Below, in pieces: positions 6,733 to 59,725 of a stretch of 64,000 nucleotides of DNA. The stretch lies in the sequence record ON184125; one strand, given 5' to 3'. The position numbers and the translations under genes were made by a program. How positions within the stretch are numbered: the first letter of the stretch is position 1; the number at the start of each line of letters is the position of its first letter. The notes under the pieces were generated by a model, which made no database searches, was not told where the DNA came from, and saw only the letters and a program-made list of their open reading frames with translations. Origin of the DNA: Escherichia phage PC3.

Positions 6733-6747
6733 CGAGGATCACACATA

Positions 6748-7522: not shown

Positions 7523-9031
7523 ATGGCAGACATTCAGATTGTTAAGGTTAACGAAGTCCGCATGCGTTGCATCGCAGATCTTTCTATCAGGGAAGAACTT
7601 AATGACTACTTCAAATTCGAAGACCCGAACTTCGTTCCCAACCCCTTCTCTAAATGGGACGGGGTTGTCCGCCTATTTACCAAGTCATCTGGTCTAATCG
7701 ATATCGGTCTGCTGTTTGAGGTATTTAAGTTCTGTAAGAACAACGGATACACCATTGAACTGGATCCGGCACTGAAGTACATTCAGGACATCCCAGATGA
7801 AGAAATCCGTGAATTCATCGACAGTCTGCATCCAAAGATCCGTACCGAAAATCACGAATATATCGATGCCGAGACTCGTGACTACCAGTACGACACCATC
7901 GCCAAGGCTATGCGTCAAACCAGATGCGTCTGTGAACTGGCTACGAGTGCCGGTAAGTCCTTTATTCTGTATGTCATGGCGCGGTACTACAGGCGGCGCA
8001 GAGAAGCTCTCGAAAGTCCTCTGAAGACGCTTATCGTGGTGCCGTCAATCCACCTAGTCACTCAGCTGTACGACAACTTCGAAGAGTATGCGCATGGCAG
8101 TGATTGGAAGCCCGTTGTTAACACCCAGCTGATTTTTGAGGGCGCGACAAAGGAGATCAGCAAACCAATCGTCATCAGCACATGGCAAGGCATTCAAGAC
8201 CAGCCGAAGGAATGGTTCCACCAGTTCGGTGATATCGTGGTGGATGAAGTGCACACCTCCAAGTCTGAGAAACTGTCTTACATCCTAAACAACTGCATCT
8301 ATGCCGACCAGCGCCTGGGGGTTACAGGTACGCTGGCGAATACCAAAGTTGCCGGGCTTCAGGTGGTGGCTCACTTCGGGGCGTACCATAAGATCATCAC
8401 GGCTCGCGATCTCATCAATCTCGGGTACGCCACTGACATCAAAGTGAAGATGATTCAGCTGAAGCACACTCCGGCGGATGCTGTTGGTCTGGACGGGGAT
8501 TATTCCAAGGAAATAGAATACCTCATTACACACCAGTCCCGCAACGAACTGATCGCCAAGATGGCACTGAATCTGAAAGGAAACGTGGCCATCATGTTCG
8601 AGCGTATTGATGGTCACATGATGGTCGTGTATGATATGCTGAGCGCAGTCAAGCCCAACGTGTTTGTCATCAACGGGGAAGTGAAGATCGAAGACCGCCG
8701 CCGCATACAGAAAGCGATGGAGGATGGAGAGGACATCACCCTGTTGGCATCATACGGGACAATGCAGCAGGGAGTGTCGATCAAGAAGCTACACCACCTT
8801 GTACTGGCACACCCGAGCAAGTCATATATCCGCGTCATACAGACATTGGGTCGTCTGATGCGTCAGCACTCCTCTAAGGACGTCGCGTGGATATGGGACT
8901 TAGTGGATGATGCATCGTACAACGCCAGCACGAACCACACTCTTAGGCACTCTCACGAGCGTTACAAGTTTTACCTGGCAGAGCGCCACCCCGTGGAGTT
9001 CATGAAGGTGGCGCTGGGTAATCACGATTAA
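7523..9031 (+). CDS. uvsW: SF2 DNA helicase, UvsW-like
   Basis: Walker A TSAGKSF, DEVH box, further SF2 motifs; ORF 7430-9031 trimmed to ATG after GGGAG. Confidence 0.6.
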   Translation: MADIQIVKVNEVRMRCIADLSIREELNDYFKFEDPNFVPNPFSKWDGVVRLFTKSSGLIDIGLLFEVFKFCKNNGYTIELDPALKYIQDIPDEEIREFIDSLHPKIRTENHEYIDAETRDYQYDTIAKAMRQTRCVCELATSAGKSFILYVMARYYRRRREALESPLKTLIVVPSIHLVTQLYDNFEEYAHGSDWKPVVNTQLIFEGATKEISKPIVISTWQGIQDQPKEWFHQFGDIVVDEVHTSKSEKLSYILNNCIYADQRLGVTGTLANTKVAGLQVVAHFGAYHKIITARDLINLGYATDIKVKMIQLKHTPADAVGLDGDYSKEIEYLITHQSRNELIAKMALNLKGNVAIMFERIDGHMMVVYDMLSAVKPNVFVINGEVKIEDRRRIQKAMEDGEDITLLASYGTMQQGVSIKKLHHLVLAHPSKSYIRVIQTLGRLMRQHSSKDVAWIWDLVDDASYNASTNHTLRHSHERYKFYLAERHPVEFMKVALGNHD

Positions 9032-9630: not shown

Positions 9631-9759
9631 ATAAATGCCGAAGGCATTTATTAATAACGCGTAGCGCAATTTGCCACTTGTTCTATAAGCAAAACACAGC
9701 GATACTAGATTGCGTCAAACATGACTTGAACCCCCACTATATTTTGAGGATACATACAA

Positions 9760-10428
9760 ATGCAAGAGATCACTCTCTCCGAACGTACACTTCAGTTGCT
9801 GGCCAACTTTGAGACCATCAACCCATCTATCGTTCTGACACCGGGCAAGATGCTGCGCAGTATTAATGATTCTTCTACTGTGATCGCCGTGGCGCAGATC
9901 GAAGAAGACTTCCCGTTTGAGTTCCCGATTCTGGACCTGACCAAACTTCTGGCCATCCAGCGCCTACCTTCCTTCAAAGGTGCCAAAGCCGAATTCCATC
10001 AGGACTACATCCTGTTGAAAGGCGAAAGCTCTCAGCTGCAATTCTGGCGTTCTGCTAAAGAACTCACGGTTGTCCCGGCTGATACTATTGAACTGCCGTC
10101 TGTCGACTTTGAAGCGATCATCACTCCAGAGAAGATGAAAGAACTGACCCGCGCCTGTTCTACCCTCGGACACAAGACTGTGCGCCTGGTTGCTCAGGGT
10201 GGCAAAACTCGCCTGGTTGCAACCACCACTACCCTGGACAACTCCAACAACTACACTGTTGAGCTGGGCGAAACCGCGCTGCCGGACTTCGTAATGCCAC
10301 TGGATGTTGCCAACCTGAAAATGATCGAAGGCAACTACACTCTGCGTGCATGTGCTGATCTACAAATGGTGAACTTCCAATCATCCGACGCGACGATCAA
10401 TTACTTCGTCGGCGCGCAGATTGAGTAA
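9760..10428 (+). CDS. 45: Sliding clamp (gp45-like)
   Basis: 222 aa; similar to T4 gp45 along its length (N-terminal LLANFETINPSIVL..., C-terminal KMIEGNYTL...); followed by clamp-loader genes. Confidence 0.85.
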   Translation: MQEITLSERTLQLLANFETINPSIVLTPGKMLRSINDSSTVIAVAQIEEDFPFEFPILDLTKLLAIQRLPSFKGAKAEFHQDYILLKGESSQLQFWRSAKELTVVPADTIELPSVDFEAIITPEKMKELTRACSTLGHKTVRLVAQGGKTRLVATTTTLDNSNNYTVELGETALPDFVMPLDVANLKMIEGNYTLRACADLQMVNFQSSDATINYFVGAQIE

Positions 10429-10509
10429 TCAATCTCCAGCCTGATGCTATAATGTGTGGGCGGGGGAGTTCCCCGCCTATTTGAAATGATTCTTCTACAC
10501 GAGGCTGAA

Positions 10510-11166
10510 ATGAGGAACCAACCGTTTGTATATCATTTGTTAGGGAAGGATGGTTCTTTCTATTTTGGTTCTAGAACGAAATTGGGTGCACATCCTTTAC
10601 AATTGTTCACTTCATATTTCACTTCTTCACAAACAGTCAAGGAAATCATATCTAAGAAAGGTTCTGATTTCTTTGATGTAGAATTCGTAGAACTGTTTGA
10701 CTCCCCAGAAGAAGCATATTGGAGAGAGCAGCAGTTGATTAGTGAGAACATTGATCACCCAAAATGTTTAAACAAATCATTTCAGCCACTGGGTTGTGGT
10801 ATCGCCAACGGTAGGTCAGCGGGACCCAAACATCACCGAGTTGGTGTCTCGAGTTGGTTGAAGGGTAAGTCTGGGAATCTTCATCCCATGCACGGAAGAA
10901 CTGGTAAAAGTCACCCCGCCGCAGGAATAAAACCTTGGGACACCGGGGCTGCGCTGCTACACAACACCAGACCGATGTGGTTAAAGGCTGGGGTAGTGTA
11001 TGATCACTGGGTTTCTACTGGTGATGGGTGCCATAGAATTGCCCGTTTGTTCTCTATCAAAGAGAACACCGTAACGAGTATGTTAAACAAATTCAAAGAG
11101 GGCTGGAACCCGTATGATGACGACGCTTGGGTTCTGTTCTGTAAACTATATCATGGAAATACATAA
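10510..11166 (+). CDS. GIY-YIG homing endonuclease (Seg-like) with NUMOD-like C-terminal motifs
   Basis: FVYHLLGKDGSFYFGSRT ... EAYWREQQLISENI match GIY / YIG / conserved Arg, Glu, Asn; locally AT-rich; inserted between genes 45 and 44. Confidence 0.6.
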   Translation: MRNQPFVYHLLGKDGSFYFGSRTKLGAHPLQLFTSYFTSSQTVKEIISKKGSDFFDVEFVELFDSPEEAYWREQQLISENIDHPKCLNKSFQPLGCGIANGRSAGPKHHRVGVSSWLKGKSGNLHPMHGRTGKSHPAAGIKPWDTGAALLHNTRPMWLKAGVVYDHWVSTGDGCHRIARLFSIKENTVTSMLNKFKEGWNPYDDDAWVLFCKLYHGNT

Positions 11167-12155
11167 TGTCTAATATCACGATTGTAAAAGACCAGTACGC
11201 CTGGGAGAACCGTTTCCGCCCTGACAACCTGGACGAGATTATCATCCCTCAAGACGTCCGCGCTAAAATCCATGGCTACATCACCAGCGGTAACGGCAAC
11301 ATCCCGTCTATGCTGTTTTACTCCCCTCAGCCTGGTACTGGCAAGACCACTTCTGCTTTGGCCGTGTGTAATGAAATCGGTTGTAAGCAACCACTGATGA
11401 TCAACGCATCCCTGGACAACAGCATCGACGTTATCCGTGACCGCGTGATTCAGTATTCTACTGGTGTGAGCGTATTCGGTGGCCGCAAAGTCGTTATCCT
11501 CGACGAAGTAGAGCGTCTGTCTATGGCGGCACAGGAGTCGCTGAAGGGTATTGTGGAGAAGGTCTCCAAGAACTGTTCATTCATCTTGACCACCAACGCC
11601 AAGCAACGTGTGAACGAACCTCTGCGCTCTCGTTGCCGTGAAATCGACTTTATCTGGAATGAGGCTGAGGCTGATGAGGTAAAACTTCAGTTCATGCGCC
11701 GCTGTGCTGAAATCCTTCGCAGCGAAGGTGTTGAGTATGACCCTCCTGTGTTGGCTGCTATTGTCAAGCGCCATTTCCCTGATAACCGCCGCATCATGGG
11801 TGTTCTACAGGATAACGTCACCACTTACGGCAAGATCGACGAACGTGCACTGGCTGTGTTAAAATCGGCCGATATGGGCATGTTGGTGAATATGTTGAAG
11901 GATAATGACTGGGCTGGGATGAAGCAGTGGGTGACCGACAACCAGAACTATATCACTGAAGACTTCTATTCCCGCTTCTTCCAGTTCTGTGTACCACAGG
12001 ATAAAGAGAAGCAAATGTTGGTTCAGAATGAGTCTATCCCTGATCTGGTGTGCGTATGTGGTCAGTCTCAGATTGAACACCGTCAAGTCGGCGATGTCTG
12101 GCTGCATGCTGTGTTTTTCCTGACCAATGTCATGCTCAACATCAAGTGGAAGTGA
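11166..12155 (+). CDS. 44: Clamp loader large subunit (gp44-like, AAA+)
   Basis: Walker A SPQPGTGKTT, DEVE box, SRC motif; collinear with T4 gp44 to the C-terminal ...KWK. Confidence 0.9.
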   Translation: MSNITIVKDQYAWENRFRPDNLDEIIIPQDVRAKIHGYITSGNGNIPSMLFYSPQPGTGKTTSALAVCNEIGCKQPLMINASLDNSIDVIRDRVIQYSTGVSVFGGRKVVILDEVERLSMAAQESLKGIVEKVSKNCSFILTTNAKQRVNEPLRSRCREIDFIWNEAEADEVKLQFMRRCAEILRSEGVEYDPPVLAAIVKRHFPDNRRIMGVLQDNVTTYGKIDERALAVLKSADMGMLVNMLKDNDWAGMKQWVTDNQNYITEDFYSRFFQFCVPQDKEKQMLVQNESIPDLVCVCGQSQIEHRQVGDVWLHAVFFLTNVMLNIKWK

Positions 12156-12159
12156 TATT

Positions 12160-12582
12160 ATGGCCGCCCTTGGATTGTTCGATTACCTGGCTGCTCTGAA
12201 CAGCAGCAAAGAAAACCTTTTGCGGTCTGATGACCCAGAAGTGTTGAAAGGATTCGACCCGTTTATGACGCGGCGTGGTTTAGCTCAGAGCAAAGACACT
12301 CTAGTGGCTGCACAACAGATGAATAAGCTACATGCTGTCACTCCATGGATGCAATGGTCATATGCCTTTTACACCATTCCGGCTCGGAAACGCTACGACA
12401 AATGGTCTAAGAAAGGTCCGATTGATCCTGACGTGAAGTTACTCTCCCAGTACTTCTACATCAGCATGGAGAAGGCATCGGAGTACGTCCGTTTCTTGCC
12501 GAAGGAAGTCCTGGCCGAAATACGCGAGAAGATGAGACGCACTGAGCTGAACGCCAAAGCGAAACCGCGCAAGGCTAAGTAG
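12160..12582 (+). CDS. 62: Clamp loader small subunit (gp62-like)
   Basis: ORF 12127-12582 trimmed to ATG just after gene 44 stop; RKRYDKWSKK resembles T4 gp62 RGKRYGKWAK; position conserved. Confidence 0.65.
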   Translation: MAALGLFDYLAALNSSKENLLRSDDPEVLKGFDPFMTRRGLAQSKDTLVAAQQMNKLHAVTPWMQWSYAFYTIPARKRYDKWSKKGPIDPDVKLLSQYFYISMEKASEYVRFLPKEVLAEIREKMRRTELNAKAKPRKAK

Positions 12583-12680
12583 TTCAAACTATTGTAAAAG
12601 GGGAATGAGTCATGGCGCGTAATACGCTAGACATATTGAATATTTCAGCAGTCAACGATGAGGCCAGCATCGTTGATTGT

Positions 12681-13076
12681 ATGGTTGAAGTTCAATTGAA
12701 CCAAGATCGGCCAGGTATATTCCTGGGGATCAAGGAAACACTGAGTCGAATTGGGGTAAACACGCGCCAAGAGCCGAATACTCTGTATCAGACTTGCCAT
12801 ATTCTTCATAAGTGTGGCAAGTATTATATCGTCCACTTTAAGCATCTATTTATGCTGGACGGGCATTACAACGGATTTAACCGCGAAGATGTCCTGAGGA
12901 TGAACCGAATCATCAAGCTGCTGGAGCAGTGGAACATGGTGAAGGTCATTCATCCTGAGCAGGTCACCGAAGCAGCCGATATGTCTCGCATTAAAGTGGT
13001 TAAACACGATCAGGTTCCTGAATGGAAACTGGTTCCAAAATACATCATCCGGCCTACGAAGGCAAAAAGCGAATAA
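12681..13076 (+). CDS. regA: Translational repressor RegA
   Basis: YQTCHILHKCGKYYIVHFK ... EWKLVPKYIIRP closely matches T4 RegA; start chosen by alignment, the upstream ATG at 12612 is an alternative. Confidence 0.7.
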   Translation: MVEVQLNQDRPGIFLGIKETLSRIGVNTRQEPNTLYQTCHILHKCGKYYIVHFKHLFMLDGHYNGFNREDVLRMNRIIKLLEQWNMVKVIHPEQVTEAADMSRIKVVKHDQVPEWKLVPKYIIRPTKAKSE

Positions 13077-14033: not shown

Positions 14034-15254
14034 ATGAAAGATAAAGCCCTGGACGTCCCGTACTGCGGTGTCCGTGAAGAAAAGATAAAGTCGGCCAAAC
14101 CGGTTCTCAGTCCGACCCATACCAGCCTGTCTTACGAATGGATGCGCGATCGTTATCAGATCCACGTCAAGAAGGACGTCCAGCGCCTTCCTGCTCCTTG
14201 GACTGATAATCCCATATTACGGCAGGTCAAGTTCTGTAACGTCCGGAGAGAGCACGACAGGCAGTCTCTCAACCTGATCAACAACATCGTCAACAACGAT
14301 GCTCTGGGTATGGCCGACAAGATGTTCAACTGCGTGATGTTTCGCATGTTCAACCTCTGGGATCCAATCCAGGCTATCGGCGGCGCGATGACGATCAAAG
14401 AATTCGCCGAGATCAACCTCGATGCAACCCGCGAACGACTTCAGAAGTTCGAGGCCGACGGCGGTAAGGTATTCACCAATGCCTTCAACACGGGCGGCCT
14501 GAAGCAATGCCTGGCTTTCCCTGAGATGGTTGTCAACCACAAGGAGCAGCGCTTCGGTGGGATGATGGTGAATCTGATCTGTAAAGATGGTTCAACCCAG
14601 AACATGGATTATAAAGAAGCCAAGGCGATAGCCGAAGCAGAACCGGACTTCTACACCATCGAAGGTTGGGAACCGTACATGCCAATGCGTGTCATCCGCT
14701 CCCTGAAGGCATTCGTCAACAAGTATCCAAATTATTTCCATGACCTGCTGCGCCTTGGTACTCCTTTGGAAGTATACCAGCGCATGTACGACGACATCGA
14801 AGGGCTTGGTCCATTCCTGGCCTATCAGATCTGGGTAGACTTCACTTACATTCCTGAATATCCTTTCAGTGAGAACCACTTCACGGTTGCTGGACCAGGC
14901 TGTCGCGCAGGGATCGACCTGATGTTCCAGGACAAAGATGGCATGACGCATGAAGAATGCATCTTCTGGTTGCGGGACAATCAGGACGCGGTTTATGGCC
15001 CTCTTGGGTATAACAGGGAAGAATTTTGGTCTGCGGAAGAGCCTTGGGATCGCCATTTAAATATAATGGCAGGAGAAAATATGTTTTGTGAACTTCAGAA
15101 ATATACCCGTTGTGTAGAGGCCATACAGCAAGGTAAAAAGCCGCGCGGGAAGGTTGGATATGACGGCGGTGGGGAATACAAAAAGCGCTGTGATGAAGTC
15201 GTGCTCAAACGTGGTTCCGTCAATTTGCTGGACCGTTTGAAGAAACCTGAATAA
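14034..15254 (+). CDS. Hypothetical protein (406 aa)
   Basis: Well-formed ORF with AGAGGA SD; no motif I can assign. Confidence 0.5.
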   Translation: MKDKALDVPYCGVREEKIKSAKPVLSPTHTSLSYEWMRDRYQIHVKKDVQRLPAPWTDNPILRQVKFCNVRREHDRQSLNLINNIVNNDALGMADKMFNCVMFRMFNLWDPIQAIGGAMTIKEFAEINLDATRERLQKFEADGGKVFTNAFNTGGLKQCLAFPEMVVNHKEQRFGGMMVNLICKDGSTQNMDYKEAKAIAEAEPDFYTIEGWEPYMPMRVIRSLKAFVNKYPNYFHDLLRLGTPLEVYQRMYDDIEGLGPFLAYQIWVDFTYIPEYPFSENHFTVAGPGCRAGIDLMFQDKDGMTHEECIFWLRDNQDAVYGPLGYNREEFWSAEEPWDRHLNIMAGENMFCELQKYTRCVEAIQQGKKPRGKVGYDGGGEYKKRCDEVVLKRGSVNLLDRLKKPE

Positions 15255-29755: not shown

Positions 29756-30283
29756 ATGATAGAAATTTATTCTGACGGGGGTTCTAACCCGAAGACCAAC
29801 CAGGCCGCAGGATGGGCATTTGTCATCAGGCCAATAACGGGTATGCAATGGAAGGTGTTCTTCGGTCATCTACCTCCCCCGTCCACTAACAATATCGCCG
29901 AGTTGTTGGGTGTGACCAACGCATTGAAGCTACTGTGGGCATTCTCAGGAAAGGGTGAGCGCAGAATACCAAAGGCAACAATTTGGTCTGACAGCCAATA
30001 TGCTATCAAGAGCGTCACCGAATGGCGAGCGAAGTGGGAGTATCAGGGTTTCCCAGAAAAGAACGTTGAACTCATCAAAGATCTGTTCAGAATCTATGAT
30101 CTCGTTTGTTCAATTTGTGATGTTGAACTAAAATGGGTTAAGGGTCATGCGGGGCACGAAGGCAACGAACTTGCCGATGACTGGGCCACAGCAGCCAAAA
30201 ACGACAGCAACTTCCTGATTGAGAATGACAAGATCTCGGTGAAGAAGGTTGTTGGATCTTTTGATGAATTTATCGGTATCTGA
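29756..30283 (+). CDS. rnh: Ribonuclease H (RNase HI-like)
   Basis: MIEIYSDGGS ... NNIAELLGV ... WSDSQYAI ... KGHAGHEGNELADDWA catalytic signature; ORF 29660-30283 trimmed. Confidence 0.8.
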   Translation: MIEIYSDGGSNPKTNQAAGWAFVIRPITGMQWKVFFGHLPPPSTNNIAELLGVTNALKLLWAFSGKGERRIPKATIWSDSQYAIKSVTEWRAKWEYQGFPEKNVELIKDLFRIYDLVCSICDVELKWVKGHAGHEGNELADDWATAAKNDSNFLIENDKISVKKVVGSFDEFIGI

Positions 30284-30294
30284 GGGATTTCATA

Positions 30295-31086
30295 ATGGGA
30301 ATGAACTTCGTGGACAGAGGGGAGAATGTCGTCAAATATTTCACAGACGAAGATAACGAGCGTGTCATCAGTATCCTTCGTGATTGGATCCCTGCTCGTA
30401 AGAAGGCTCTGGCTGAAGGCACCAGGCTTCCAAAGATCCCCAACTATGTTGCTCTACAGGTCCAGCGCATCATCACCAAGATGAGCACCCGCTACAACTA
30501 TCGCGACTATCCCTTCCGTGAAGACATGGTCTCTGAAGCAATAGTCAACATCTTGCGCTACCTCCACACATTTGACGTCGAACACATTGGAAAGAAAGGG
30601 AAGATCAACTTCTTCTCTTGGGTGACCATGTGTGCTGATCGATCATTCGCTCGTAAACTGAATATCGAAGAAGAGCACACGTACATTAAATTGCGCTCAT
30701 TTGAAGAGGCGGGTGGGTTCGCAGGCCTGGCAGACGATCCCGACTTCCAACAAGAGGTCTTTGTTGATGCTACAGGAATTGGCATGGACTTCCGTGAACG
30801 TATCGGCAACTTTGAGAACAAAAAGGACGCTCAAAGGCAGAAGGAACGAGAGAAGGTGGAGGCAGCTCGTCTCGCAGAATCGAATAAAAAGATTGCGAAA
30901 GGCATACTTCAATACATGGCGCAGGCTAAGAATACGGTAACAGCGCAGGCCGAAGACAATTCAGATCAGGACTTCGGCAAAACCCAATTCAATCTGGAAG
31001 ATGATATCTGTGCGATGGAACCAGATTGGGAAGCCCTCAAACAAAGATTAGAAGAACGGGAGAAAAAGAACAATGGCGATTGCTAA
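30295..31086 (+). CDS. 55: Late-transcription sigma factor (gp55-like) with C-terminal charged extension
   Basis: N-terminal 150 aa collinear with T4 gp55 (DW.., ..FD.., NFFSWVTMCADRSFARK vs NPHAYITQACFNAFVQR). Confidence 0.7.
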   Translation: MGMNFVDRGENVVKYFTDEDNERVISILRDWIPARKKALAEGTRLPKIPNYVALQVQRIITKMSTRYNYRDYPFREDMVSEAIVNILRYLHTFDVEHIGKKGKINFFSWVTMCADRSFARKLNIEEEHTYIKLRSFEEAGGFAGLADDPDFQQEVFVDATGIGMDFRERIGNFENKKDAQRQKEREKVEAARLAESNKKIAKGILQYMAQAKNTVTAQAEDNSDQDFGKTQFNLEDDICAMEPDWEALKQRLEEREKKNNGDC

Positions 31087-32188
31087 AATTGGCGATCTGC
31101 ATATCGGGAGCCGTAATGGTTCTCGATACGTTCGCGACTTCATCAAGAACTATCTCATCAATTATTTCATTCCTGAACTTGCCGACTCTGATATCAAAGA
31201 GGTCTGGCAGTTCGGTGATATGTTTGATGTCCGCAAATTCATGTACGGTCGTGACAAAGACTGGCTGAAGGATGAACTCACCCCTGCATTGAAAGCGGCT
31301 GGTATCAAGTGGAATGGCATCGTGGGTAACCATGACATCACCCTGGAAGAGTCCAACCGCATCAACTGGCCATCCTACCTGAACGAACTCGACCCGGATG
31401 TGTACTGCTATTACAGCGAACCGACCGAAGTGATGATCGAGGGTGTCAAGACTCTGCTGCTGCCTTGGATCAACAAGGAGAACTATGATGCGTCTATTAA
31501 AGCGATACAAGATACAGACGCCGAGTACTGTTTTGCGCATCTGGAGCTGGCGGGGTTCAAAATGTACCAGTCTTCTACTTGTGATCACGGTCAGATCGAC
31601 GTTGCTCTGCTTTCCAAGTTTACCAGGGTCGACACGGGCCATTTCCATACCCGTTCGATGGAAGGTAACATTCAATATATTGGGACTCCATATCACCTGA
31701 ACTGGGAAGACTACAAAGACGGCACTAACCGTGGCTTCTATGTGGACGACATGCGTGGTGGTGAGATCTTTATCCCGAACGCCGAGCACCAGACGCTGTT
31801 CCGCTATGTGGAATATGATTACACCAAGTTGTCCTCTGATGAAGAAGGTAATTGGATCGACCCGGAATGGCTGAACACAGGCTTGGGTATTGAAGGGCAA
31901 ATTGTTAAGGTTATTGTACAGAACCGTGACAATGCTAAGCATTATGAAAAGTTCTGTGATGCGATGAAGCGATGCAAGTGTATTGACTACAACTTCATCG
32001 ACCGGACGATTACTGTTGCTGCCGAGAAGGTTGAGGTCACCGAAGAGATGGTGGCGACCGATGCGGTGGAAGTCCTGAAGAAGGATATCCGCGCCGGGAA
32101 CAACATTCAGCGCCCCGACAACGTCTGTAAACTGGCAGAGCACTTCTATAATGCTGCCCAACAACGCCTGAACAAACTGGATGCATAA
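31073..32188 (+). CDS. 47: Recombination endonuclease subunit (gp47-like, Mre11/SbcD family)
   Basis: Phosphoesterase motifs GDLHIG, GDMFD, GNHD, GHFH; collinear with T4 gp47. Confidence 0.85.
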   Translation: MAIAKIGDLHIGSRNGSRYVRDFIKNYLINYFIPELADSDIKEVWQFGDMFDVRKFMYGRDKDWLKDELTPALKAAGIKWNGIVGNHDITLEESNRINWPSYLNELDPDVYCYYSEPTEVMIEGVKTLLLPWINKENYDASIKAIQDTDAEYCFAHLELAGFKMYQSSTCDHGQIDVALLSKFTRVDTGHFHTRSMEGNIQYIGTPYHLNWEDYKDGTNRGFYVDDMRGGEIFIPNAEHQTLFRYVEYDYTKLSSDEEGNWIDPEWLNTGLGIEGQIVKVIVQNRDNAKHYEKFCDAMKRCKCIDYNFIDRTITVAAEKVEVTEEMVATDAVEVLKKDIRAGNNIQRPDNVCKLAEHFYNAAQQRLNKLDA

Positions 32189-34526
32189 CATGACTCAGAG
32201 CACAGATATCTTGACCAAATTTGGTAATCTTTTGAAGGAAGCCGACGCCCCGGTCGAGGTTGAAGTCCCATTTGAAGTGCGTAACGTTGTTACACACAAA
32301 CTGACCTTCCGCAAAGGCCGCGCCAAGAACTTCCGCTCCATCGGCAATCAGTTCATGGAGATTGATTATCAGCGCAACCCGGCCACCCTTGTCACGTCTG
32401 ATGACAACGGCGCGGGTAAATCCACGATGCTGGTATGGCTGCTGTTTTTCGTACTGTACAACGACACATACAGCAAGAAGGAGAAGAAGGCAGGCCTGGT
32501 TAACTCACAGAGCCGCAAGGAATGTGTGGGTGAGGTGGAGTTTGCCTGCCGTGGTAGCGAATGGAAGGTTCGCCGGGGTATCAAGCCCGACTTTGTTGAA
32601 GTCTACCAGATGGTGGACGGCAAGTGGTTGCAGATCGATAACGAAGCAGCCAAAGCCGACATGAACAAGTACATCGTGAACCTCATCGGTGTAGACCAGA
32701 AGATGTTTGAGAACTCTCTGGTGTTAGGTAAAGAGAAGTTCATTCCGTTCACGGAGATGTACACAGCCGACCGCCGCGCCATGGTGGAGACTATCTGGGA
32801 CTTGGGCTTCTTCAGCCTGATGAACGAAGATGTCAAGGCCGCCATCAAAAGGACAAATGCAACTCTGGACTCTATATCTAACGAATGCGCACTGAAGGTT
32901 GTTGACCACACCAACAAGAAGACGCAGCTTCAGCAGATCGAGCAATCCAACGCCCTGATCCAACAGCAGTCGGCCGATATCCTTGTACAGCAACAGGAAG
33001 CCCTGAATTCCCTGGATGCTGACATTGCCGCGCAGAATGAGGAGCGCACCCGCCTCACGGCTGTGGAGTTTGAAGCCACCCAGGAAATGAAGACGGTGGA
33101 AAGCCGCCTGCATGATGAATCCATGGTAGAGATCGAGGCTGTCAAGAAAGACTTTGATGCCAAGATCCAGGCGGTGAAGGATGCCGCGCAGGACAAGGCT
33201 GACGATTATGAGCGCATCGAAGTGTCTACTGCGGAGCATGATCTTCAGGTCTTGCGTGACCGCGCCTTTACAGTGGCCGAACGCAAGAACACCCTGCTCA
33301 CCGAGCGCAACACAAACCTGGACACCCTGAACGCTGCTATTCAGCGCCGCCAGCAGGGTGAGAACTTCCGTATCAAGTTCCAGACTGAAATGGAGGGGCA
33401 TCAGTCGGCCATCAAGCGCTTCCACGACATGGGGACTTGCCCAACATGTACCCAACTGGTGTCCGACGATACCAAGGCGCGCATTGAAAGCGAGTACAAT
33501 CCTCGGATTCAGGATCTACAGGCGAAGCTGGACCAGCTGGATAAAGTCACCGCCGAAGTCACTGTGTTGATCGATGACCACAAAGCCCAGGACGACAAGC
33601 TGGTTGCTGACATTGCTGTGTTGGATGCTGAACTGGATGCAATGCGCAAGCAGGCCGACGAAATCGTTGACAACATCAAGCAGCTGCGCCGTGATATTCA
33701 AGGTTTTCATGATGCTGCCACGATTGAGTGTAATTCGCTGAACCGTGAATGCCAACAGAAGATCCTTGACATCCGTAAGGCACTGAACGTTCGTTTTGAA
33801 GACATCACTGCTTCGCTGCAACAGACGCGAGAGAACGCCGTCAGCGGGATTAAAGCCGTCGATGATAAGATCGCCGAGCTGAAAGCCCGTCGTGCTCCTC
33901 TCGTGGCGTCTATTGCCGATCTAGAGCGTAAACTGGCTGTACAGTCAACACCTACCACCGACCTAGAGAACTCTATCGCTGCGTTGGAGGGTGAACTGGA
34001 GGATCTATACCAGCGCCGCGAGGATGCCGACCAGGAACTCCAGGACTTACAACACCTGCTGTTCTTCTTGAAAGATGACCAGACCAAGGCGCGTATCATC
34101 GCCCTGTATCTGCCATTCCTCAATAGCAAGATCAACGAGTATCTTGAAGCCCTCAACATGTTCTTGGACATCGTTGTTGACGATACCTTTGAGATCACCA
34201 TGAGCGCAGCAGGCCGCAAAGGACAGAGTATCTTCTCCCTGTCTACTGGTCAGCGCAGTCGTCTGAACCTGGCTGTGACATTAGCTCTGCGCGATGTGGC
34301 TAACCTCAAGGCGTCTGTACAATGTAACCTGTTCGTGTTGGACGAGATCCTTGAGAACATGAGCGAGCGCGGGGTGCAGGAATCTGTTGAGATGTTGAAG
34401 CATAAGTTCGGTGGGAACAACCTGTTTGTCATCAGTCAGCGTGAGCAGGAGTTCCAGGAATACTTCCAACACAACATTCGCTACGGTCTGCGAAACGGCC
34501 TGACTGAAGTTATCAAGAAGGATTGA
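32181..34526 (+). CDS. 46: Recombination endonuclease subunit (gp46-like, Rad50/SbcC family)
   Basis: N-terminal Walker A NDNGAGKST, long coiled-coil centre with CPTC zinc hook-like motif, C-terminal Walker B FVLDE. Confidence 0.85.
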   Translation: MHNMTQSTDILTKFGNLLKEADAPVEVEVPFEVRNVVTHKLTFRKGRAKNFRSIGNQFMEIDYQRNPATLVTSDDNGAGKSTMLVWLLFFVLYNDTYSKKEKKAGLVNSQSRKECVGEVEFACRGSEWKVRRGIKPDFVEVYQMVDGKWLQIDNEAAKADMNKYIVNLIGVDQKMFENSLVLGKEKFIPFTEMYTADRRAMVETIWDLGFFSLMNEDVKAAIKRTNATLDSISNECALKVVDHTNKKTQLQQIEQSNALIQQQSADILVQQQEALNSLDADIAAQNEERTRLTAVEFEATQEMKTVESRLHDESMVEIEAVKKDFDAKIQAVKDAAQDKADDYERIEVSTAEHDLQVLRDRAFTVAERKNTLLTERNTNLDTLNAAIQRRQQGENFRIKFQTEMEGHQSAIKRFHDMGTCPTCTQLVSDDTKARIESEYNPRIQDLQAKLDQLDKVTAEVTVLIDDHKAQDDKLVADIAVLDAELDAMRKQADEIVDNIKQLRRDIQGFHDAATIECNSLNRECQQKILDIRKALNVRFEDITASLQQTRENAVSGIKAVDDKIAELKARRAPLVASIADLERKLAVQSTPTTDLENSIAALEGELEDLYQRREDADQELQDLQHLLFFLKDDQTKARIIALYLPFLNSKINEYLEALNMFLDIVVDDTFEITMSAAGRKGQSIFSLSTGQRSRLNLAVTLALRDVANLKASVQCNLFVLDEILENMSERGVQESVEMLKHKFGGNNLFVISQREQEFQEYFQHNIRYGLRNGLTEVIKKD

Positions 34527-41685: not shown

Positions 41686-41888
41686 CGTTAGAAGAACTGA
41701 ACAAACTGGACGACGGAGAGATCGTGCGGGGGTACTTGAAATCTCGTGAGGGGTATGTCTTATCTGGGGAAGAATCTCCGAGTTTCATCCACGGCTGGAA
41801 GAATGGTCAGGCGGACTTCCATGGGGTTCCCATCAGTGATGAGCAAGCCGAATTGGCTCACGAGTTTGTAAGATTTCGCCCGAACTAA
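41682..41888 (+). CDS. Hypothetical protein (68 aa)
   Basis: ATGA overlap with primase gene. Confidence 0.4.
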   Translation: MTLEELNKLDDGEIVRGYLKSREGYVLSGEESPSFIHGWKNGQADFHGVPISDEQAELAHEFVRFRPN

Positions 41889-41942: not shown

Positions 41943-42085
41943 AATACTTCAAAAATAATTTTTTAAAAATTATTGAAAAAGACTTTACTCTTCAATAATG
42001 ATGCACTATTATAGTTCACATAGGGCGGCAACACACCGCCGAATGAAAAGTGAAACGCACCAACTACATTATGAGGAATTACATC

Positions 42086-42574
42086 ATGGCTACTACCAAA
42101 ACTCTGATCACCAACGGCACCATCTCTTTCGAACTGAACACCGAAGTTGCTAAAGTTGAAATGTTCCGCATCGCTCAGGCAGCTGGCTTCACTGGTGGTA
42201 AAACTTCCTTCATGAACCTGCTGAACGGTAAAGTGAAATCGACAAACGGCTTCACCCTGGTAGAGCAGGTTGTGGTTGATAAAGCTGTGGTTGCTAAGAC
42301 TGCCGACAAAGTTGGTATGCTGAAAAACCTGGGTCACGACATCCACATTGTCGAAGCAAACACCGAAACTTACGGCACCATCGTAGTCGGTAAAGGTCGC
42401 ATCCAGCTGAACCCGCTGAACAACGGTTCCTTCTCTGTGATGGTCTTCCCTAAGAAAGGCTACGCAAACGAAGACATCGTGAAAGCGGCTGGTGGTGAAG
42501 CAAAAGCTCAGTACGTCAAAATGGGTAAACTGAGCGCCGACGCAGTTGAAGCTCTGGTGAGCAAACTGGCCTAA
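42086..42574 (+). CDS. Hypothetical protein (162 aa), codon usage typical of a highly expressed gene
   Basis: ORF 42050-42574 trimmed to GAGGaattacatcATG; flanked by promoter-like box and terminator. Confidence 0.5.
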   Translation: MATTKTLITNGTISFELNTEVAKVEMFRIAQAAGFTGGKTSFMNLLNGKVKSTNGFTLVEQVVVDKAVVAKTADKVGMLKNLGHDIHIVEANTETYGTIVVGKGRIQLNPLNNGSFSVMVFPKKGYANEDIVKAAGGEAKAQYVKMGKLSADAVEALVSKLA

Positions 42575-42635
42575 GCCAGACGCATAACAGGGGAGGCAAC
42601 TCCCCTCCCATTCAGATTTTTGGTAGGAGATTACC

Positions 42636-42824
42636 ATGTCCCTCGCAGTCATCCAAGCCTCAGCAGGCACTCTCTGGGTTGCCGACCGCATTCCGAACAA
42701 AGTCTTCCCTCAGTTCCAAGAGGAACTCGAGCAGGTGATGTTGGCAGTCTTGGAAAAATACGGGTACGACGCCGAAGTTCGTACGTCCTTCAAAGAAGTT
42801 ATGCCAGTGGTGGTAGCAAGATGA
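42636..42824 (+). CDS. Hypothetical small protein (62 aa)
   Basis: ORF with AGGAG SD. Confidence 0.4.
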   Translation: MSLAVIQASAGTLWVADRIPNKVFPQFQEELEQVMLAVLEKYGYDAEVRTSFKEVMPVVVAR

Positions 42825-43162
42825 ACCAGATCGATATCAAGGTTGAATGGTTCGCGAACAAACGATCTTATTATGCGTTCATATACGCCATAGAATGTTG
42901 TCAGAAACTTCAGAATCTCGCGAATAAGGGATACACATTCATTGACCAATATTCTAATGTTCGGAAGAACTGGGAGATTGAGATCGACGGCTCAGAGTCA
43001 TGTGTACTCCTCGACAGAACATGTTTCGCTGGTGGGGAATGGGTTGAAACTCCAGAAGGGAATAAGATCTGGTGTACCAAGAAAGCCGTTGACAGCTTCT
43101 TGAGACACATCAGATGCATACCACCTTCTAATTTGAAGACTGCTTTGTCCCACGTTTCATAG
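42821..43162 (+). CDS. Hypothetical protein (113 aa), AT-rich codon usage
   Basis: ORF 42620-43162 trimmed to ATG in ATGA overlap with upstream stop. Confidence 0.4.
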   Translation: MNQIDIKVEWFANKRSYYAFIYAIECCQKLQNLANKGYTFIDQYSNVRKNWEIEIDGSESCVLLDRTCFAGGEWVETPEGNKIWCTKKAVDSFLRHIRCIPPSNLKTALSHVS

Positions 43163-49619: not shown

Positions 49620-49970
49620 ATGCAAGATTACAAAGAGTTGAGAATGCAGCTGACAGTCCCCATACCAGACAAAGGTTTATACCAAAACCTGCATCATCTG
49701 ATGTCTGAAGGGCATATGCTGCCTTTGCGGTCTGAGGATGGATCTCAAATCGGTTATGCCACCAGTTGCGTGGTCTACGACAAACCAGGAGACGAAGAGC
49801 GCGGACAGGTCAGTGTGGGTTCCAGATTTGTGTTGAACAAGAAGCTGGAGGGATCAGTGGTTGACGTCAGGCCGATGATTATCCTCTACCAATTCAACGG
49901 TAAAGAGATGTTCAGGTTATTGAGCCACTTCATGTTAGTCGTGGCTCCGGCATTCAGGACGAAATTCTAA
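49620..49970 (+). CDS. Hypothetical protein (116 aa)
   Basis: ORF with GGAG SD; 3' end overlaps convergent minus-strand gene. Confidence 0.4.
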   Translation: MQDYKELRMQLTVPIPDKGLYQNLHHLMSEGHMLPLRSEDGSQIGYATSCVVYDKPGDEERGQVSVGSRFVLNKKLEGSVVDVRPMIILYQFNGKEMFRLLSHFMLVVAPAFRTKF

Positions 49971-58975: not shown

Positions 58976-59725
58976 ATGTCACAAATTTATCGTATGTTCG
59001 GGTTAGAGTTTACCCCAGCTCGCCTTGATATGAAACTCCCAAATTTTGAAAAGAGTGGATTCGAAGTCGGTTGTGTTCTGGGTTTCGATCGAAACGGCAG
59101 ATCCGTTCGTGAACAAAATATTTTCGATGTTCTGGGTGTGAAACCGGACAGTGAAACAGCAATCCGCTTCGAAGAGGACATCCGTTTTGGTCATTCCGAC
59201 CTGTACGATTATGTCCGTGATGTGATCGCTGGTTATGAACACGCTAAAGCACACATGAAGATGGCCACCGATGCATGCCTGAAACTGGCGCATTGTCTAT
59301 ACTTCTTTGGTCGCAAGCGTCAGAATCTCGATATGGTATTCCCATCAGAACTGCTTGAACGCTTCTCTGAAACCGAATTTCTGCTGAAGCAAGCCGACGG
59401 AGTTGCTGTCAAATCTAGTGAAGTATTCAAATACCCGATAAATCTGGTTTCTGGACATCTGCTGGTAGGGCGTGATCAGGTCGACCTGGCGATTCATCCG
59501 GATATGGAGTATGATCAGAACTCCTGTCGTGCCATCCACAACTACGTAGGTGTCATTCTAGAAAACTTGTACTCAGCCATGGAAGAAGTGATGGCAGCAG
59601 AACAACAGGAAGAAGTGATTCGTCGTATCCGCGAAGATATCGAAGGGAAGGTGAAACAGGATGTTCTAGGGGAATATCCACCAGAGTATTTCCCTGAAGT
59701 TCCAAACTTCTACTTGTCCAAATAA
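58976..59725 (+). CDS. Hypothetical protein (249 aa)
   Basis: ORF with GAGG SD. Confidence 0.5.
   Translation: MSQIYRMFGLEFTPARLDMKLPNFEKSGFEVGCVLGFDRNGRSVREQNIFDVLGVKPDSETAIRFEEDIRFGHSDLYDYVRDVIAGYEHAKAHMKMATDACLKLAHCLYFFGRKRQNLDMVFPSELLERFSETEFLLKQADGVAVKSSEVFKYPINLVSGHLLVGRDQVDLAIHPDMEYDQNSCRAIHNYVGVILENLYSAMEEVMAAEQQEEVIRRIREDIEGKVKQDVLGEYPPEYFPEVPNFYLSK

Follow-up and report, generated by a model that had tools for sequence, protein, structure and literature searches.

Introduction

T4-like phages, and notably those of the LIMEstone type, are full of free-standing homing endonuclease genes. In phage T4, the free-standing enzymes cleave at a distance of hundreds to thousands of bp from their own genes; for SegF and SegG the site is located in the neighbouring conserved gene, and substitutions there give immunity (PMC2988022). 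The T4 seg and mob ORFs tend to overlap the ORF upstream, and the UAAUGA stop/start overlap of mobE and nrdA suggests that translation of an endonuclease gene is coupled to that of its conserved neighbour (PMC2988022). For Dickeya phage LIMEstone1, 14 homing endonuclease genes were reported (PMC3296691).

The DNA considered here, a window of 64,000 nucleotides (the whole stretch that was analysed), is from a phage which was compared as Escherichia phage PH4, a member of the Ackermannviridae. Between the genes for sliding clamp and clamp loader it contains an ORF which an earlier note on this DNA had taken for a GIY-YIG homing endonuclease gene. In some relatives this ORF has already been labelled "homing endonuclease" by automated pipelines; no account of the insert was found in the literature on homing endonucleases of Ackermannviridae and Kuttervirus or on clamp loader and GIY-YIG, and the SW16-7 paper, in which the clamp genes are CDS148, 149 and 151, leaves CDS150 unmentioned. 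From sequence comparisons, the ORF would appear to be a free-standing SegE-like GIY-YIG homing endonuclease gene, which probably works still or did so until recently; we estimate the probability of this reading at about 85%.

Results

The neighbours of the ORF are homologues of genes 45 and 44, as had been proposed: the sliding clamp gene upstream (9760–10428, + strand; PHROG 223 at 1e-64, Pfam gp45-slide_C, annotated as sliding clamp in PH4) and the clamp-loader ATPase gene downstream (11166–12155, + strand; PHROG 168 at 1e-104, T4 gp44 structure 3U5Z at 1.5e-40). The ORF is present at 10456–11166 on the + strand, GTG 10456 being the longest possible start only. Judging from the aligned sequences, the real start is most likely ATG 10510; alignment with insert-free relatives delimits a coding sequence of 218 aa plus stop (10510–11166, + strand). 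This ATG is kept as start among relatives, with GAGG (10501–10504) just upstream, and the resulting 218 aa are the product annotated in YX22, SP-9-14, KE31, allotria and others. A reading from GTG 10456 would traverse a GC hairpin that is conserved in the native spacer between genes 45 and 44; the PH4 record's own annotated start is ATG 10486. The 218-aa ORF is intact in 15 of 15 insert-bearing records. Tblastn of the window revealed no additional endonuclease copy, and the gene is present as a single copy across the PH4 genome.

Comparison with insert-free phages showed that the native spacer is unaltered upstream of the insert (10429–10509, + strand) and differs in a single loop base from the 81 nt of spacer in A221, Ag3 and SKML-39, which lack the insert. 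It contains, all on the + strand, the sequence TGcTATAAT (10445–10453), the GC hairpin (10456–10480) and the above-mentioned GAGG, which is the original Shine-Dalgarno sequence of gene 44. The inserted DNA amounts to 656 bp (10510–11165), i.e., the endonuclease ORF alone (737 minus 81), its boundary being ambiguous within a 4-nt AATG repeat (10509–10512 and 11165–11168). The junction reads GAGGCTGAAATG/TCTAAT in insert-free A221, AV101 and Ag3, and GAGGCTGAAATG/AGGAAC...CATAATG/TCTAAT in PH4. The insertion point coincides exactly with the gene 44 start codon, and thus the Shine-Dalgarno sequence and ATG that belonged to gene 44 now serve the translation of the endonuclease. Gene 44 itself restarts at an overlapping TAATG (11164–11168) from the 3' end of the insert, preceded at a distance of 9 nt by no more than a weak GGA; the predicted overlap of the stop (TAA, 11164–11166) with the gene 44 start (ATG, 11166–11168) is therefore present. 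The sole robust RNA structure is the GC hairpin, which is native, occurring also in insert-free phages, and was not called in a terminator scan. In T4, RNA hairpins sequester the ribosome-binding sites of I-TevI, segB and mobE. A hairpin hiding the ribosome-binding site of the endonuclease or of gene 44 was considered here and rejected, since the folding test gave nothing significant (z = -1.0 for the translation initiation region of the endonuclease; z = +1.45, i.e., unusually open, for that of gene 44 in the insert context).

Direct profile matches of the endonuclease protein are weak (PF19835 SegE_GIY-YIG, 18 bits, below the cut-off of 25; PF01541, 14.5 bits, below the cut-off of 22.6; no match in NCBIfam), and the family assignment needed an exhaustive phmmer search as well as fold comparison. 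PHROG 314 "homing endonuclease" matched at 4e-16. A word-indexed protein search found two proteins only, and the exhaustive phmmer search found 770 relatives. PF19835 is matched by 30 of 42 phmmer-linked homologues (E ≤ 1e-3, best 1e-9), and membership of the GIY-YIG superfamily thus holds by transitivity; fold comparison showed the GIY-YIG alpha/beta fold in the protein. A profile built from the 42 sequences matched no solved structure at the sequence level. The motif FVYHL..YFGS with conserved Arg, Glu and Asn, which had been read from the translation, could be located at F6-V7-Y8-H9-L10, Y18-F19-G20-S21, R22, E73 and N88. Residues Y8, Y18, G20, R22, E73 and N88 are invariant or at least 85% conserved among the 42 homologues (position R22 is R in 36 and K in 4), and all catalytic residues are present in the nine alleles examined.

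Three regions can be distinguished, all on the + strand: a GIY-YIG catalytic domain (aa 1–95, 10510–10794; with Y8, Y18, G20, R22, Y36-F-T-S-S, E73 and N88), a flexible linker with a doubled G-x-x-G-x-x-H-P-x-x-G (aa 96–150, 10795–10959) and a C-terminal helix-turn-helix DNA-binding domain with the family motif GWNPxxDxxW (aa 151–218, 10960–11163). The pLDDT of the linker is low, with values < 50 at residues 100–118 and block means ≤ 53 up to about residue 140. The NUMOD-like C-terminal repeats suggested in the earlier note stand in part: the doubled GxxGxxHPxxG motif exists, but in the linker, the true C-terminus being the helix-turn-helix, and no NUMOD profile, NUMOD3 (PF07460) included, matched the protein at E ≤ 1. 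Among the 42 homologues, NUMOD3 is matched by 20, at the position of the linker.

The ORF was supposed to be more AT-rich than its neighbours, and a scan of GC content and codon usage of 63 ORFs agreed. The endonuclease ORF (GC 0.435, GC3 0.425; mean GC3 of the window genes 0.58, sd 0.05) is the lowest in GC3 and in codon-usage score, its codon usage being unmatched, and the third lowest in GC; the first 100 codons (N-terminal) have a GC of 0.377. Other ORFs with low GC3 or odd codon usage (58976–59725, 49620–49970, 31037–32191, 42821–43162, 41963–42691) showed no Pfam match and hence no evidence for mobile genes there.

The insert is present in 15 of 273 related phage records (13 distinct phages). 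The carriers, a minority within Aglimvirinae and Cvivirinae, have it at the identical nucleotide in both subfamilies. In A221, AV101 and RPN242, whose flanks are 97–99% identical, it is precisely absent; the idea of a mobile insertion was borne out by this comparison of the 45-44 junction. Between PH4 and four Kutterviruses the endonuclease gene is 91.6–94.5% identical, and genes 45 and 44 are 76–78% identical; the corresponding dS values are 0.19–0.29 for the endonuclease gene vs 1.3–1.9 for the flanking genes, i.e., about 7–10 times lower between subfamilies. Conversely, pSal-SNUABM-02 and the S. Newport contig/CAU_YEP3 have gene 45 99.3% and gene 44 98.1% identical, but their endonuclease alleles are only 77.5% identical. 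The history of the endonuclease gene is therefore incongruent with that of its flanking genes. Its dN/dS is 0.07–0.19 in all comparisons and all domains, which shows purifying selection. These sequence data indicate a constrained gene with recent lateral spread.

Decay and loss of the insert also happen, according to a 3' remnant in some Dickeya phages. LIMEstone1, RC-2014 and Coodle have retained about 46 nt of the endonuclease 3' end together with the RF allele of gene 44 (see below); the sister phage phiD3 has a clean spacer and the KY allele. The remnant at the 45-44 junction of LIMEstone1 carries no annotation.

A block linked to the insert was found within gene 44 (nt 31–62; 11196–11227, + strand) from exact 32-mer counts and clustered differences, with diagnostic positions at gene 44 nt 36, 42 and 46–50 (11201–11215). 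It codes for W-E-N-R-F-R-P, the insert-free version for W-E-N-K-Y-R-P, and it aligns with EQKYRP of T4 gp44. The bases 36C, 42G and 48T occurred in 8/8 sampled allele-A phages and in 0/10 sampled insert-free phages; in the same sample, the 3' end of gene 45 showed no insert-linked substitutions. The exact 32-mer of the block was present in 14/14 allele-A records and one insert-free record, and exact naive 32-mers in 94 insert-free records (82 + 12; Fisher 9e-17), counts in which duplicates between GenBank and RefSeq, as well as genomes related by phylogeny, are included. IMG/VR, scanned for the exact pattern of the block, yielded 0 matches and thus no independent replication. Allele A has GCC TGG GAG AAC CGT TTC CGC and allele B has GCG TGG GAG AAC AAG TAC AGA, the changes in allele B being all synonymous, including a two-step change of CGC to AGA. 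Differences between matched pairs cluster in gene 44 nt 6–54, with P from 7e-3 to 5e-18, which points to co-conversion; for example, 16 of 24 differences between alleles A and B lie within nt 6–54 (P = 5e-18), and 12 of 22 between SP-9-14 and Ag3 within nt 15–50 (P = 2e-12).

In the Kutterviruses KE31, allotria and Mansal the block is of donor type and the 30 nt between insert and block are of recipient type, which argues that the block itself was selected. A second, looser co-converted sub-block (gene 44 nt 15–24; 11180–11189, + strand; ACGATTGTAAAA vs ACTATCGTTTCC, with the change S8K) is present in PH4, YX22, SP-9-14, pSal-SNUABM-02, A221 and LIMEstone1 and absent from these three Kutterviruses. 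Kuttervirus S115 has Agtrevirus-type bases at gene 44 nt 15–54, the variant sub-block included. The RF-type block is also found in A221 and "Efm 3-10", both without the insert, and it is thus not strictly bound to present carriage. An adaptation of translation initiation was also considered for the block and rejected, on account of its distance of 36–54 nt past the ATG, the replacement of two amino acids within a conserved motif, and the difference between the alleles.

Discussion

The block would best be explained by co-conversion and cleavage immunity, with the target probably within it; it could also be pure hitch-hiking of donor sequence, unrelated to immunity. That the enzyme cuts the clamp/clamp-loader locus of insert-free relatives, as the earlier note had suggested, is supported indirectly, by same-site transfer in two subfamilies and the linked block. 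In a mixed infection, the helix-turn-helix domain and the linker would bind the 45-44 locus of a related phage that lacks the insert, and the GIY-YIG domain would cut both strands within the first 60 bp or so of gene 44. The likeliest place is about gene 44 nt 33–57, TAC GCA TGG GAA AAC AAG TAC CGC CC, which codes for "KYRP". Recombinational repair, with the insert-bearing genome as template, would then transfer the endonuclease gene and, along with it, a short segment of gene 44, and the substitutions in the block (11201–11219) would spare insert-bearing genomes from self-cleavage. A gene for 5-hmdU DNA kinase is located at 14034–15254, and phages of the family Ackermannviridae probably have hypermodified thymidine, which may influence cleavage.

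Other histories of the insert should be weighed against an active or recently active homing gene. The insert could be ancestral to the Ackermannviridae at the 45-44 junction and have been lost repeatedly by precise deletion, for which the flanking AATG repeat might serve; losses do occur, as the Dickeya phage remnants and the RF-type blocks in insert-free A221 and "Efm 3-10" attest. Yet about 95% of the records would each need loss of exactly the same 656 bp, the composition of the gene is foreign, and its incongruence with genes 45 and 44 refutes such a history as the main explanation; vertical inheritance with many losses is ruled out by the disparity in dS, and we regard this account as scarcely credible. 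A nuclease with another main role, homing being a by-product or absent, appears only slightly less improbable. Degradation of host or competitor DNA has a precedent in EndoII, a T4 GIY-YIG enzyme, and local amplification or anti-defence has reportedly been assigned to SegB; exclusion of the markers of co-infecting phages would be a further role of this kind. The architecture of catalytic domain, linker and sequence-reading helix-turn-helix is that of a site-specific homing enzyme, however, all close copies are at one genomic site, and flanking co-conversion is a signature of homing.

Somewhat more weight, although still little, is given to the view that the gene entered by homing and is now kept mainly for translation of gene 44, its protein being inactive or only a DNA-binding regulator; I-TevI, for instance, represses its own gene. 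The essential gene 44 has no Shine-Dalgarno sequence of its own and starts inside the endonuclease stop, the deletion in LIMEstone1 retained the final 46 nt or so before gene 44, and the GIY-YIG profile scores of the PH4 copy are sub-threshold. But polarity alone would keep an open frame, not an amino acid sequence; dN/dS is 0.12–0.19 in the catalytic domain itself and not low at the 3' end alone, the catalytic residues are intact in 15 of 15 copies, and transfer between the subfamilies was recent (dS about 0.19).

As a tentative extension, for which the odds are rather against than in favour, seamless invasion of Ackermannviridae genomes may be the habit of the SegE-like family: an ORF with nothing else attached would be placed at a conserved gene's start codon, either on it or abutting it. 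From that gene the endonuclease would capture both the ATG and the ribosome-binding site, so that the host gene would need a restart signal in the endonuclease 3' end. Such an entanglement could act as addiction, since expression of an essential gene for replication or transcription would suffer whenever the endonuclease gene acquired a nonsense mutation or a deletion. This would explain why the last 46 nt or so were kept in the LIMEstone1 deletion. Seamless insertion of this kind was observed between genes 45 and 44 and, with a paralogue, between RNase H and gp55; at UvsY/exonuclease there is a double overlap of a related type. Immunity would then have forced KY to RF in the near-universal "KYRP" motif of clamp loaders, and there could be competition for one site between the two endonuclease alleles, whose immunity blocks differ.

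The locus offers a clean natural experiment: two subfamilies have one 656-bp ORF inserted at the same nucleotide, the two alleles have flanking signatures of their own, and a remnant persists in some Dickeya phages. Near-isogenic pairs with and without the insert are available (PH4/YX22 vs A221/AV101; Mansal vs "Efm 3-10"), and a target of about 25 bp, within the part of the clamp-loader gene that codes for KYRP, can be concretely predicted; the E. coli phage pairs are ready-made for studies of homing and co-conversion and of the way in which an essential gene is translationally entangled. In phage-therapy genomics, the insert accounts for an indel that recurs in the core replication module and for a local mosaic there, which could otherwise mislead phylogenies.

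Comparison with known systems

The PH4 element is an additional member of an ordinary, known kind. T4 SegE, SegF, SegG and SegB are likewise free-standing GIY-YIG genes between conserved genes, patchy among relatives and with co-converted flanking markers, and SegE_GIY-YIG is the best Pfam family among the homologues of the PH4 endonuclease, although the relationship to SegE itself is remote in sequence, as the low score to its profile indicates. As with SegF and SegG, the presumed site is in a neighbouring conserved gene, with immunity presumably by substitutions. In contrast to the free-standing T4 enzymes, the linked block is only 36–54 bp away, and unlike the T4 seg and mob ORFs, the PH4 endonuclease overlaps the downstream gene, whose ribosome-binding site and start codon it takes. 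I-TevI differs in being intron-encoded (T4 td intron) and has about 18–20% sequence identity; the linker of the PH4 endonuclease gave no evidence of a zinc finger, and the cleavage motif and spacing of I-TevI should not be assumed.

The closest paralogues are F-LimVI of Dickeya phage LIMEstone1 and its orthologues in Kuttervirus and Taipeivirus, which have 34–36% identity over the full length and are annotated as "GIY-YIG homing endonuclease". They share with the PH4 gene the phage family, seamless same-strand insertion before a conserved gene and presence/absence polymorphism, but their loci are RNase H/gp55 and UvsY/exonuclease, their targets are presumably other, and none has been described at the 45-44 junction; the initial 50 nt of gp55 showed no block linked to the insert. 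With mobE, finally, the PH4 endonuclease has in common a stop/start overlap with a conserved neighbour; mobE, however, encodes an HNH enzyme and is coupled to an upstream gene, the endonuclease being the dependent partner, whereas in PH4 it is the essential downstream gene 44 which depends on the endonuclease.

Locus and reading frame

Window positions 9700–12200 (2.5 kb) showed 100% identity with Escherichia phage PH4 (ON184126.1; Ackermannviridae, Aglimvirinae), in whose record position 41700 equals window position 9700. Along the locus a UvsW-type helicase gene is followed by a small ORF on the reverse strand, gene 45, the endonuclease ORF, gene 44, gene 62 (12160–12582) and regA (12612–13076). 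Identities of the neighbouring genes are secure: the sliding clamp, gene 45 (9760–10428), matched PHROG 223 (1e-64), and the clamp-loader ATPase, gene 44 (11166–12155), PHROG 168 (1e-104) and the sequence of the T4 gp44 crystal structure (1.5e-40); further matches were to Pfam Phage_clamp_A and Translat_reg (2e-34). In A221 regA (L002 3546–3722) is annotated with only 177 nt, whereas it has 465 nt in PH4 and every other relative, possibly due to a frameshift, a pseudogene or an annotation error. A 5-hmdU DNA kinase gene (14034–15254, + strand; PF18723, 2.5e-79), "hypothetical" in the PH4 annotation, makes it probable that thymidine is hypermodified in this phage; endonucleases acting on its DNA would have to cope with this modification.

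The ORF listed in the earlier note (10456–11166) is present. Its GTG at 10456, given there as start, only opens the frame at its maximum length, whereas the conserved start, ATG 10510, yields a 218-aa product and was also chosen by the annotators of YX22, SP-9-14, pSal-SNUABM-02, KE31, allotria, S115 and CAU_YEP3. The in-frame ATG 10486, the start in the PH4 record, is ACG in Kutterviruses. The 81 nt following the gene 45 stop (10429–10509) are native spacer, found also in ORF-free relatives, bar one loop base. They contain an extended -10-like TGcTATAAT followed by a GC-rich hairpin (together 10445–10480, + strand; hairpin 10456–10480) and the Shine-Dalgarno sequence GAGG (10501–10504). All genera retain the hairpin with varying stem and loop (PH4 GGGCGGGGG/CCCCGCC, pSal GGGCGGGG/CCCGCCC, a longer loop in Maynard); it is possibly a processing, attenuation or stability element.

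The AT-richness noticed earlier was borne out by a GC and codon-usage scan, in which the gene is compositionally foreign: GC3 of the endonuclease gene was 0.425, the lowest among the window's 63 ORFs of 100 aa or more (mean 0.58, sd 0.05), as was its codon-usage score, and the bias was strongest in the first 100 codons (GC 0.377). Other ORFs with low GC3 or odd codon usage were 58976–59725 (+), 49620–49970 (+) and 31037–32191 (-), which had neither a Pfam match nor resemblance to the endonuclease.

Anatomy and distribution of the insertion

Only 15 of the 273 phage records matching the 45–44 region, representing 13 distinct phages, contain the ORF. Carriers are the Agtrevirus-like PH4, YX22, SP-9-14, SW16-7 and pSal-SNUABM-02, the Kutterviruses KE31, UTK0004, allotria, SilasIsHot, Mansal, S115 and rabagast, and Yersinia phage CAU_YEP3. 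Every close copy (amino-acid identity of 80% or more) resides at this one locus. A221, AV101 and fGh-Ecl02 have flanks of 97–99% identity, without the ORF. At the insert-free junction CACGAGGCTGAAATG is followed directly by TCTAATATCAC; in PH4, CACGAGGCTGAAATG is followed by AGGAACC, the ORF, its end ACATAATG, and then TCTAATATCAC. The spacer increases from 81 to 737 nt, and since the gain of 656 bp is exactly the 657-nt ORF minus a shared base, the inserted element is the bare ORF, with a 4-nt AATG repeat at its borders. The overlap with gene 44 was described correctly before: the last base of TAA (11164–11166) is the first of the gene 44 ATG. The inserted ORF has captured gene 44's Shine-Dalgarno sequence and start codon, and gene 44 in PH4 now begins at a TAATG overlap, preceded at 9 nt by no more than a weak GGA. 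For neither gene did RNA folding give a sign that the initiation region is sequestered.

Lateral spread and selection

The endonuclease genes of PH4 and four Kutterviruses share 91.6–94.5% identity, against 76–78% for the flanking genes 45 and 44; synonymous divergence is 0.19–0.29 versus 1.3–1.9 in the flanks. Conversely, pSal-SNUABM-02 and a 157-kb phage contig from Salmonella Newport share 99.3% identity in gene 45 and 98.1% in gene 44, while their endonuclease alleles are only 77.5% identical; CAU_YEP3 and the Newport contig have the same allele. The endonuclease of S115 is a mosaic with an N-terminus like allele A (PH4 type) and a C-terminus like allele B (CAU_YEP3 type). Purifying selection is evident from dN/dS values of 0.07–0.19 in all comparisons and in each of three regions of the gene, and the ORF is intact in 15 of 15 copies. 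Taken together, these findings show lateral spread, rule out an ancestral gene with many losses as the main story, and speak against the gene being a dead relic.

The Newport contig (AAHWVY010000012.1, assembly GCA_007416205.1; L022) is a whole Agtrevirus-like phage genome with allele B. Its uvsW helicase gene is split by extra ORFs (locus 374–1599; compare the I-LimI intron of LIMEstone1); PH4 uvsW (window 7523–9031) is uninterrupted.

Linked substitutions in gene 44

At gene 44 nt 31–56 the sequence of insert-free phages is TAC GCA/GCG TGG GAA AAC AAR TAY CGY CC in each of the three genera, encoding Y-A-W-E-N-K-Y-R-P. All allele-A phages have TAC GCC TGG GAG AAC CGT TTC CGC CC, which changes K-Y to R-F. 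The bases 36C, 42G and 48T occurred in 8/8 sampled allele-A phages and 0/10 sampled insert-free phages; in the same phages gene 45 showed no insert-linked sites. An exact PH4 32-mer (window 11196–11227) was found in 15 records of the whole phage collection, 14 with allele A and one insert-free, and two naive 32-mers occurred in 82 and 12 records, every one insert-free. Fisher's test of the association gave about 1e-16, or about 7e-13 following crude de-duplication, both values being inflated by genome relatedness.

Pairwise comparisons demonstrate co-conversion of gene 44 sequence with the insert. SP-9-14 (with insert) and Ag3 (without) differ at 22 positions in 1,659 nt, of which 12 lie within gene 44 nt 15–50 (P = 2e-12); between PH4 and AV101, nt 1–60 hold 12 of 29. 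Alleles A and B on the same backbone have 16 of 24 differences within nt 6–54 (P = 5e-18); the allele-B block, GCG TGG GAG AAC AAG TAC AGA CC, contains synonymous changes throughout, including a two-step CGC to AGA. S115 gene 44 has Agtrevirus-type bases from nt ~15 to 54, and KE31, allotria and Mansal have a donor-type block with 30 nt of recipient type between insert and block.

The block could be donor sequence that purely hitch-hiked with the insert. We consider it somewhat more probable (roughly 0.55–0.6) that it marks the recognition or cleavage site and makes carriers immune, because it persists where the intervening donor sequence was replaced, because each allele owns a distinct block, and because allele B differs in nucleotides only. 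That homing enzymes usually target the most conserved coding sequence is a further reason. The block aligns to the EQKYRP motif of T4 gp44, which would correspond to the conserved "KYRP" of RFC box II.

In insert-free phages (Ag3, L003 1781–1830, equal to window 10481–10509 plus 11166–11189) the spacer sequence GAAAUGAU can pair with gene 44 nt 16–23 (AUCGUUUC), looping out the gene 44 Shine-Dalgarno sequence and AUG (z = -1.6, not significant). The gene 44 bases of this pairing are exactly those changed in PH4-type genomes (sub-block nt 15–24).

Remnants and empty sites

In the Limestoneviruses LIMEstone1, RC-2014 and Coodle the 45–44 spacer is 104 nt long and has lost the native Shine-Dalgarno sequence, and the endonuclease gene's final ~46 nt (GCTTGGGTTCTATTCTGTAAACTATATCATGGGAATTCATAATG) still precede gene 44. 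This remnant (LIMEstone1, L020 1782–1832) is unannotated as such; the record places a "putative middle promoter" inside it. All three have the R-F allele. A clean spacer is seen in other Limestoneviruses, for example their sister phiD3 (L028), where it measures 79 nt and goes with K-Y. A221 is cleanly insert-free, yet has an R-F-type block, and so is "Enterococcus phage Efm 3-10" (OR844942.1, UNVERIFIED_ORG; L021), precisely insert-free with an R-F-type, insert-linked block. The latter record is mislabelled, being a Kuttervirus 99.3–99.7% identical to Salmonella phage Mansal over the 4-kb 45–44 locus. Both are best read as gene loss by recombination or as site conversion without the gene, and are candidates for the resistant empty sites that a homing cycle should leave behind.

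Endonuclease protein and proposed mechanism

Direct Pfam scores were sub-threshold (SegE_GIY-YIG 18 bits, cut-off 25; GIY-YIG 14.5 bits, cut-off 22.6) and an NCBIfam profile search gave nothing. The full-length protein matched PHROG 314 "homing endonuclease" (4e-16), and its C-terminal third four more PHROGs of that name. Exhaustive phmmer yielded 770 relatives at E ≤ 1e-3; 41 were aligned with the query. In these 42 sequences Y36, E73 and N88 never vary, conservation is 90% or higher at Y8, Y18, G20, F37, S39, S40, G51 and F55, and position 22 is occupied by R in 36 sequences and by K in 4. SegE_GIY-YIG was matched by 30 and NUMOD3 by 20 of the 42. As to the NUMOD-like repeats reported for this protein, a doubled GxxGxxHPxxG motif does exist in the linker, but no NUMOD profile matched. 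The AlphaFold2 model from this alignment (mean pLDDT 79) has two well-defined domains and a disordered linker (residues 100–118, pLDDT < 50). The C-terminal domain (aa ~151–218; pLDDT about 86–96 over most of it) resembles helix-turn-helix DNA-binding domains of the CENP-B/Tc3/mariner type by fold comparison. The protein thus comprises a catalytic domain, a flexible linker and a sequence-reading helix-turn-helix, the design of I-TevI-like site-specific enzymes.

The endonuclease would be expressed via gene 44's translation signals inside the 45-44-62 transcription unit, would bind insert-free 45–44 DNA of a co-infecting relative, and could introduce a GIY-YIG double-strand break no more than about 60 bp from where gene 44 starts; in recombination-dependent repair the endonuclease gene would then be copied along with the immunity block. 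In T4 the initiation region of gene 44 is a binding site of RegA; if the RegA encoded here does likewise, the endonuclease may, speculatively, have inherited RegA control by analogy with T4. Equally speculative is a dependence of gene 44 on the 3' end of the endonuclease gene, which would make clean loss costly and could explain the retained remnant.

Comparison with known systems

Seamless insertion was also found for paralogues at two other loci. In PhiSH19 (L023 1481–2260, versus Cba120, L026 728–800) a 36%-identical paralogue separates RNase H from the late sigma factor gp55; it opens with gp55's own ATGGGTAT, capturing the Shine-Dalgarno sequence and the first 8 nt of the gp55 gene, and supplies a new TAATG start, by which the gp55 N-terminus MGMNF becomes MCAMNF (insert in 36/224 Kuttervirus-type records). 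In Klebsiella phage Menlow (L025 1440–2260, versus phi1_146021, L027 600–730) a third paralogue lies between UvsY and a PD-(D/E)XK exonuclease (8/53 records). This endonuclease gene begins within the 3' end of uvsY, where seven substitutions in the last 25 nt create a GGAGG and the endonuclease ATG, and ends with a TGA that overlaps the ATG of the exonuclease. Both sites are empty in PH4 (window 30281–30300 and 6733–6747, respectively).

A literature search found no description of the 45–44 insert, its target or its remnant. The gene is annotated "homing endonuclease" in the RefSeq/PHROG-based records of allotria, rabagast, KE31 and CAU_YEP3, and "hypothetical" in PH4, YX22, SP-9-14, S115 and others. 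With the start codon corrected, the observation in the earlier note is confirmed and its interpretation supported. For specialists, the value lies in comparative evidence of unusual clarity and in a target prediction that can be tested directly.

The element is an uncharacterised member of a well-known kind: free-standing GIY-YIG homing endonuclease genes of this kind have been reviewed for T4 (PMC2988022), and homing endonuclease genes abound in this phage family, with 14 in LIMEstone1 (PMC3296691). The nearest named paralogue is F-LimVI of LIMEstone1 (36% identity). Whereas in the T4 paradigm the target lies hundreds to thousands of bp away and the upstream gene is overlapped, the putative target of the 45–44 insert is tens of bp away, and the insert overlaps and feeds the downstream gene.
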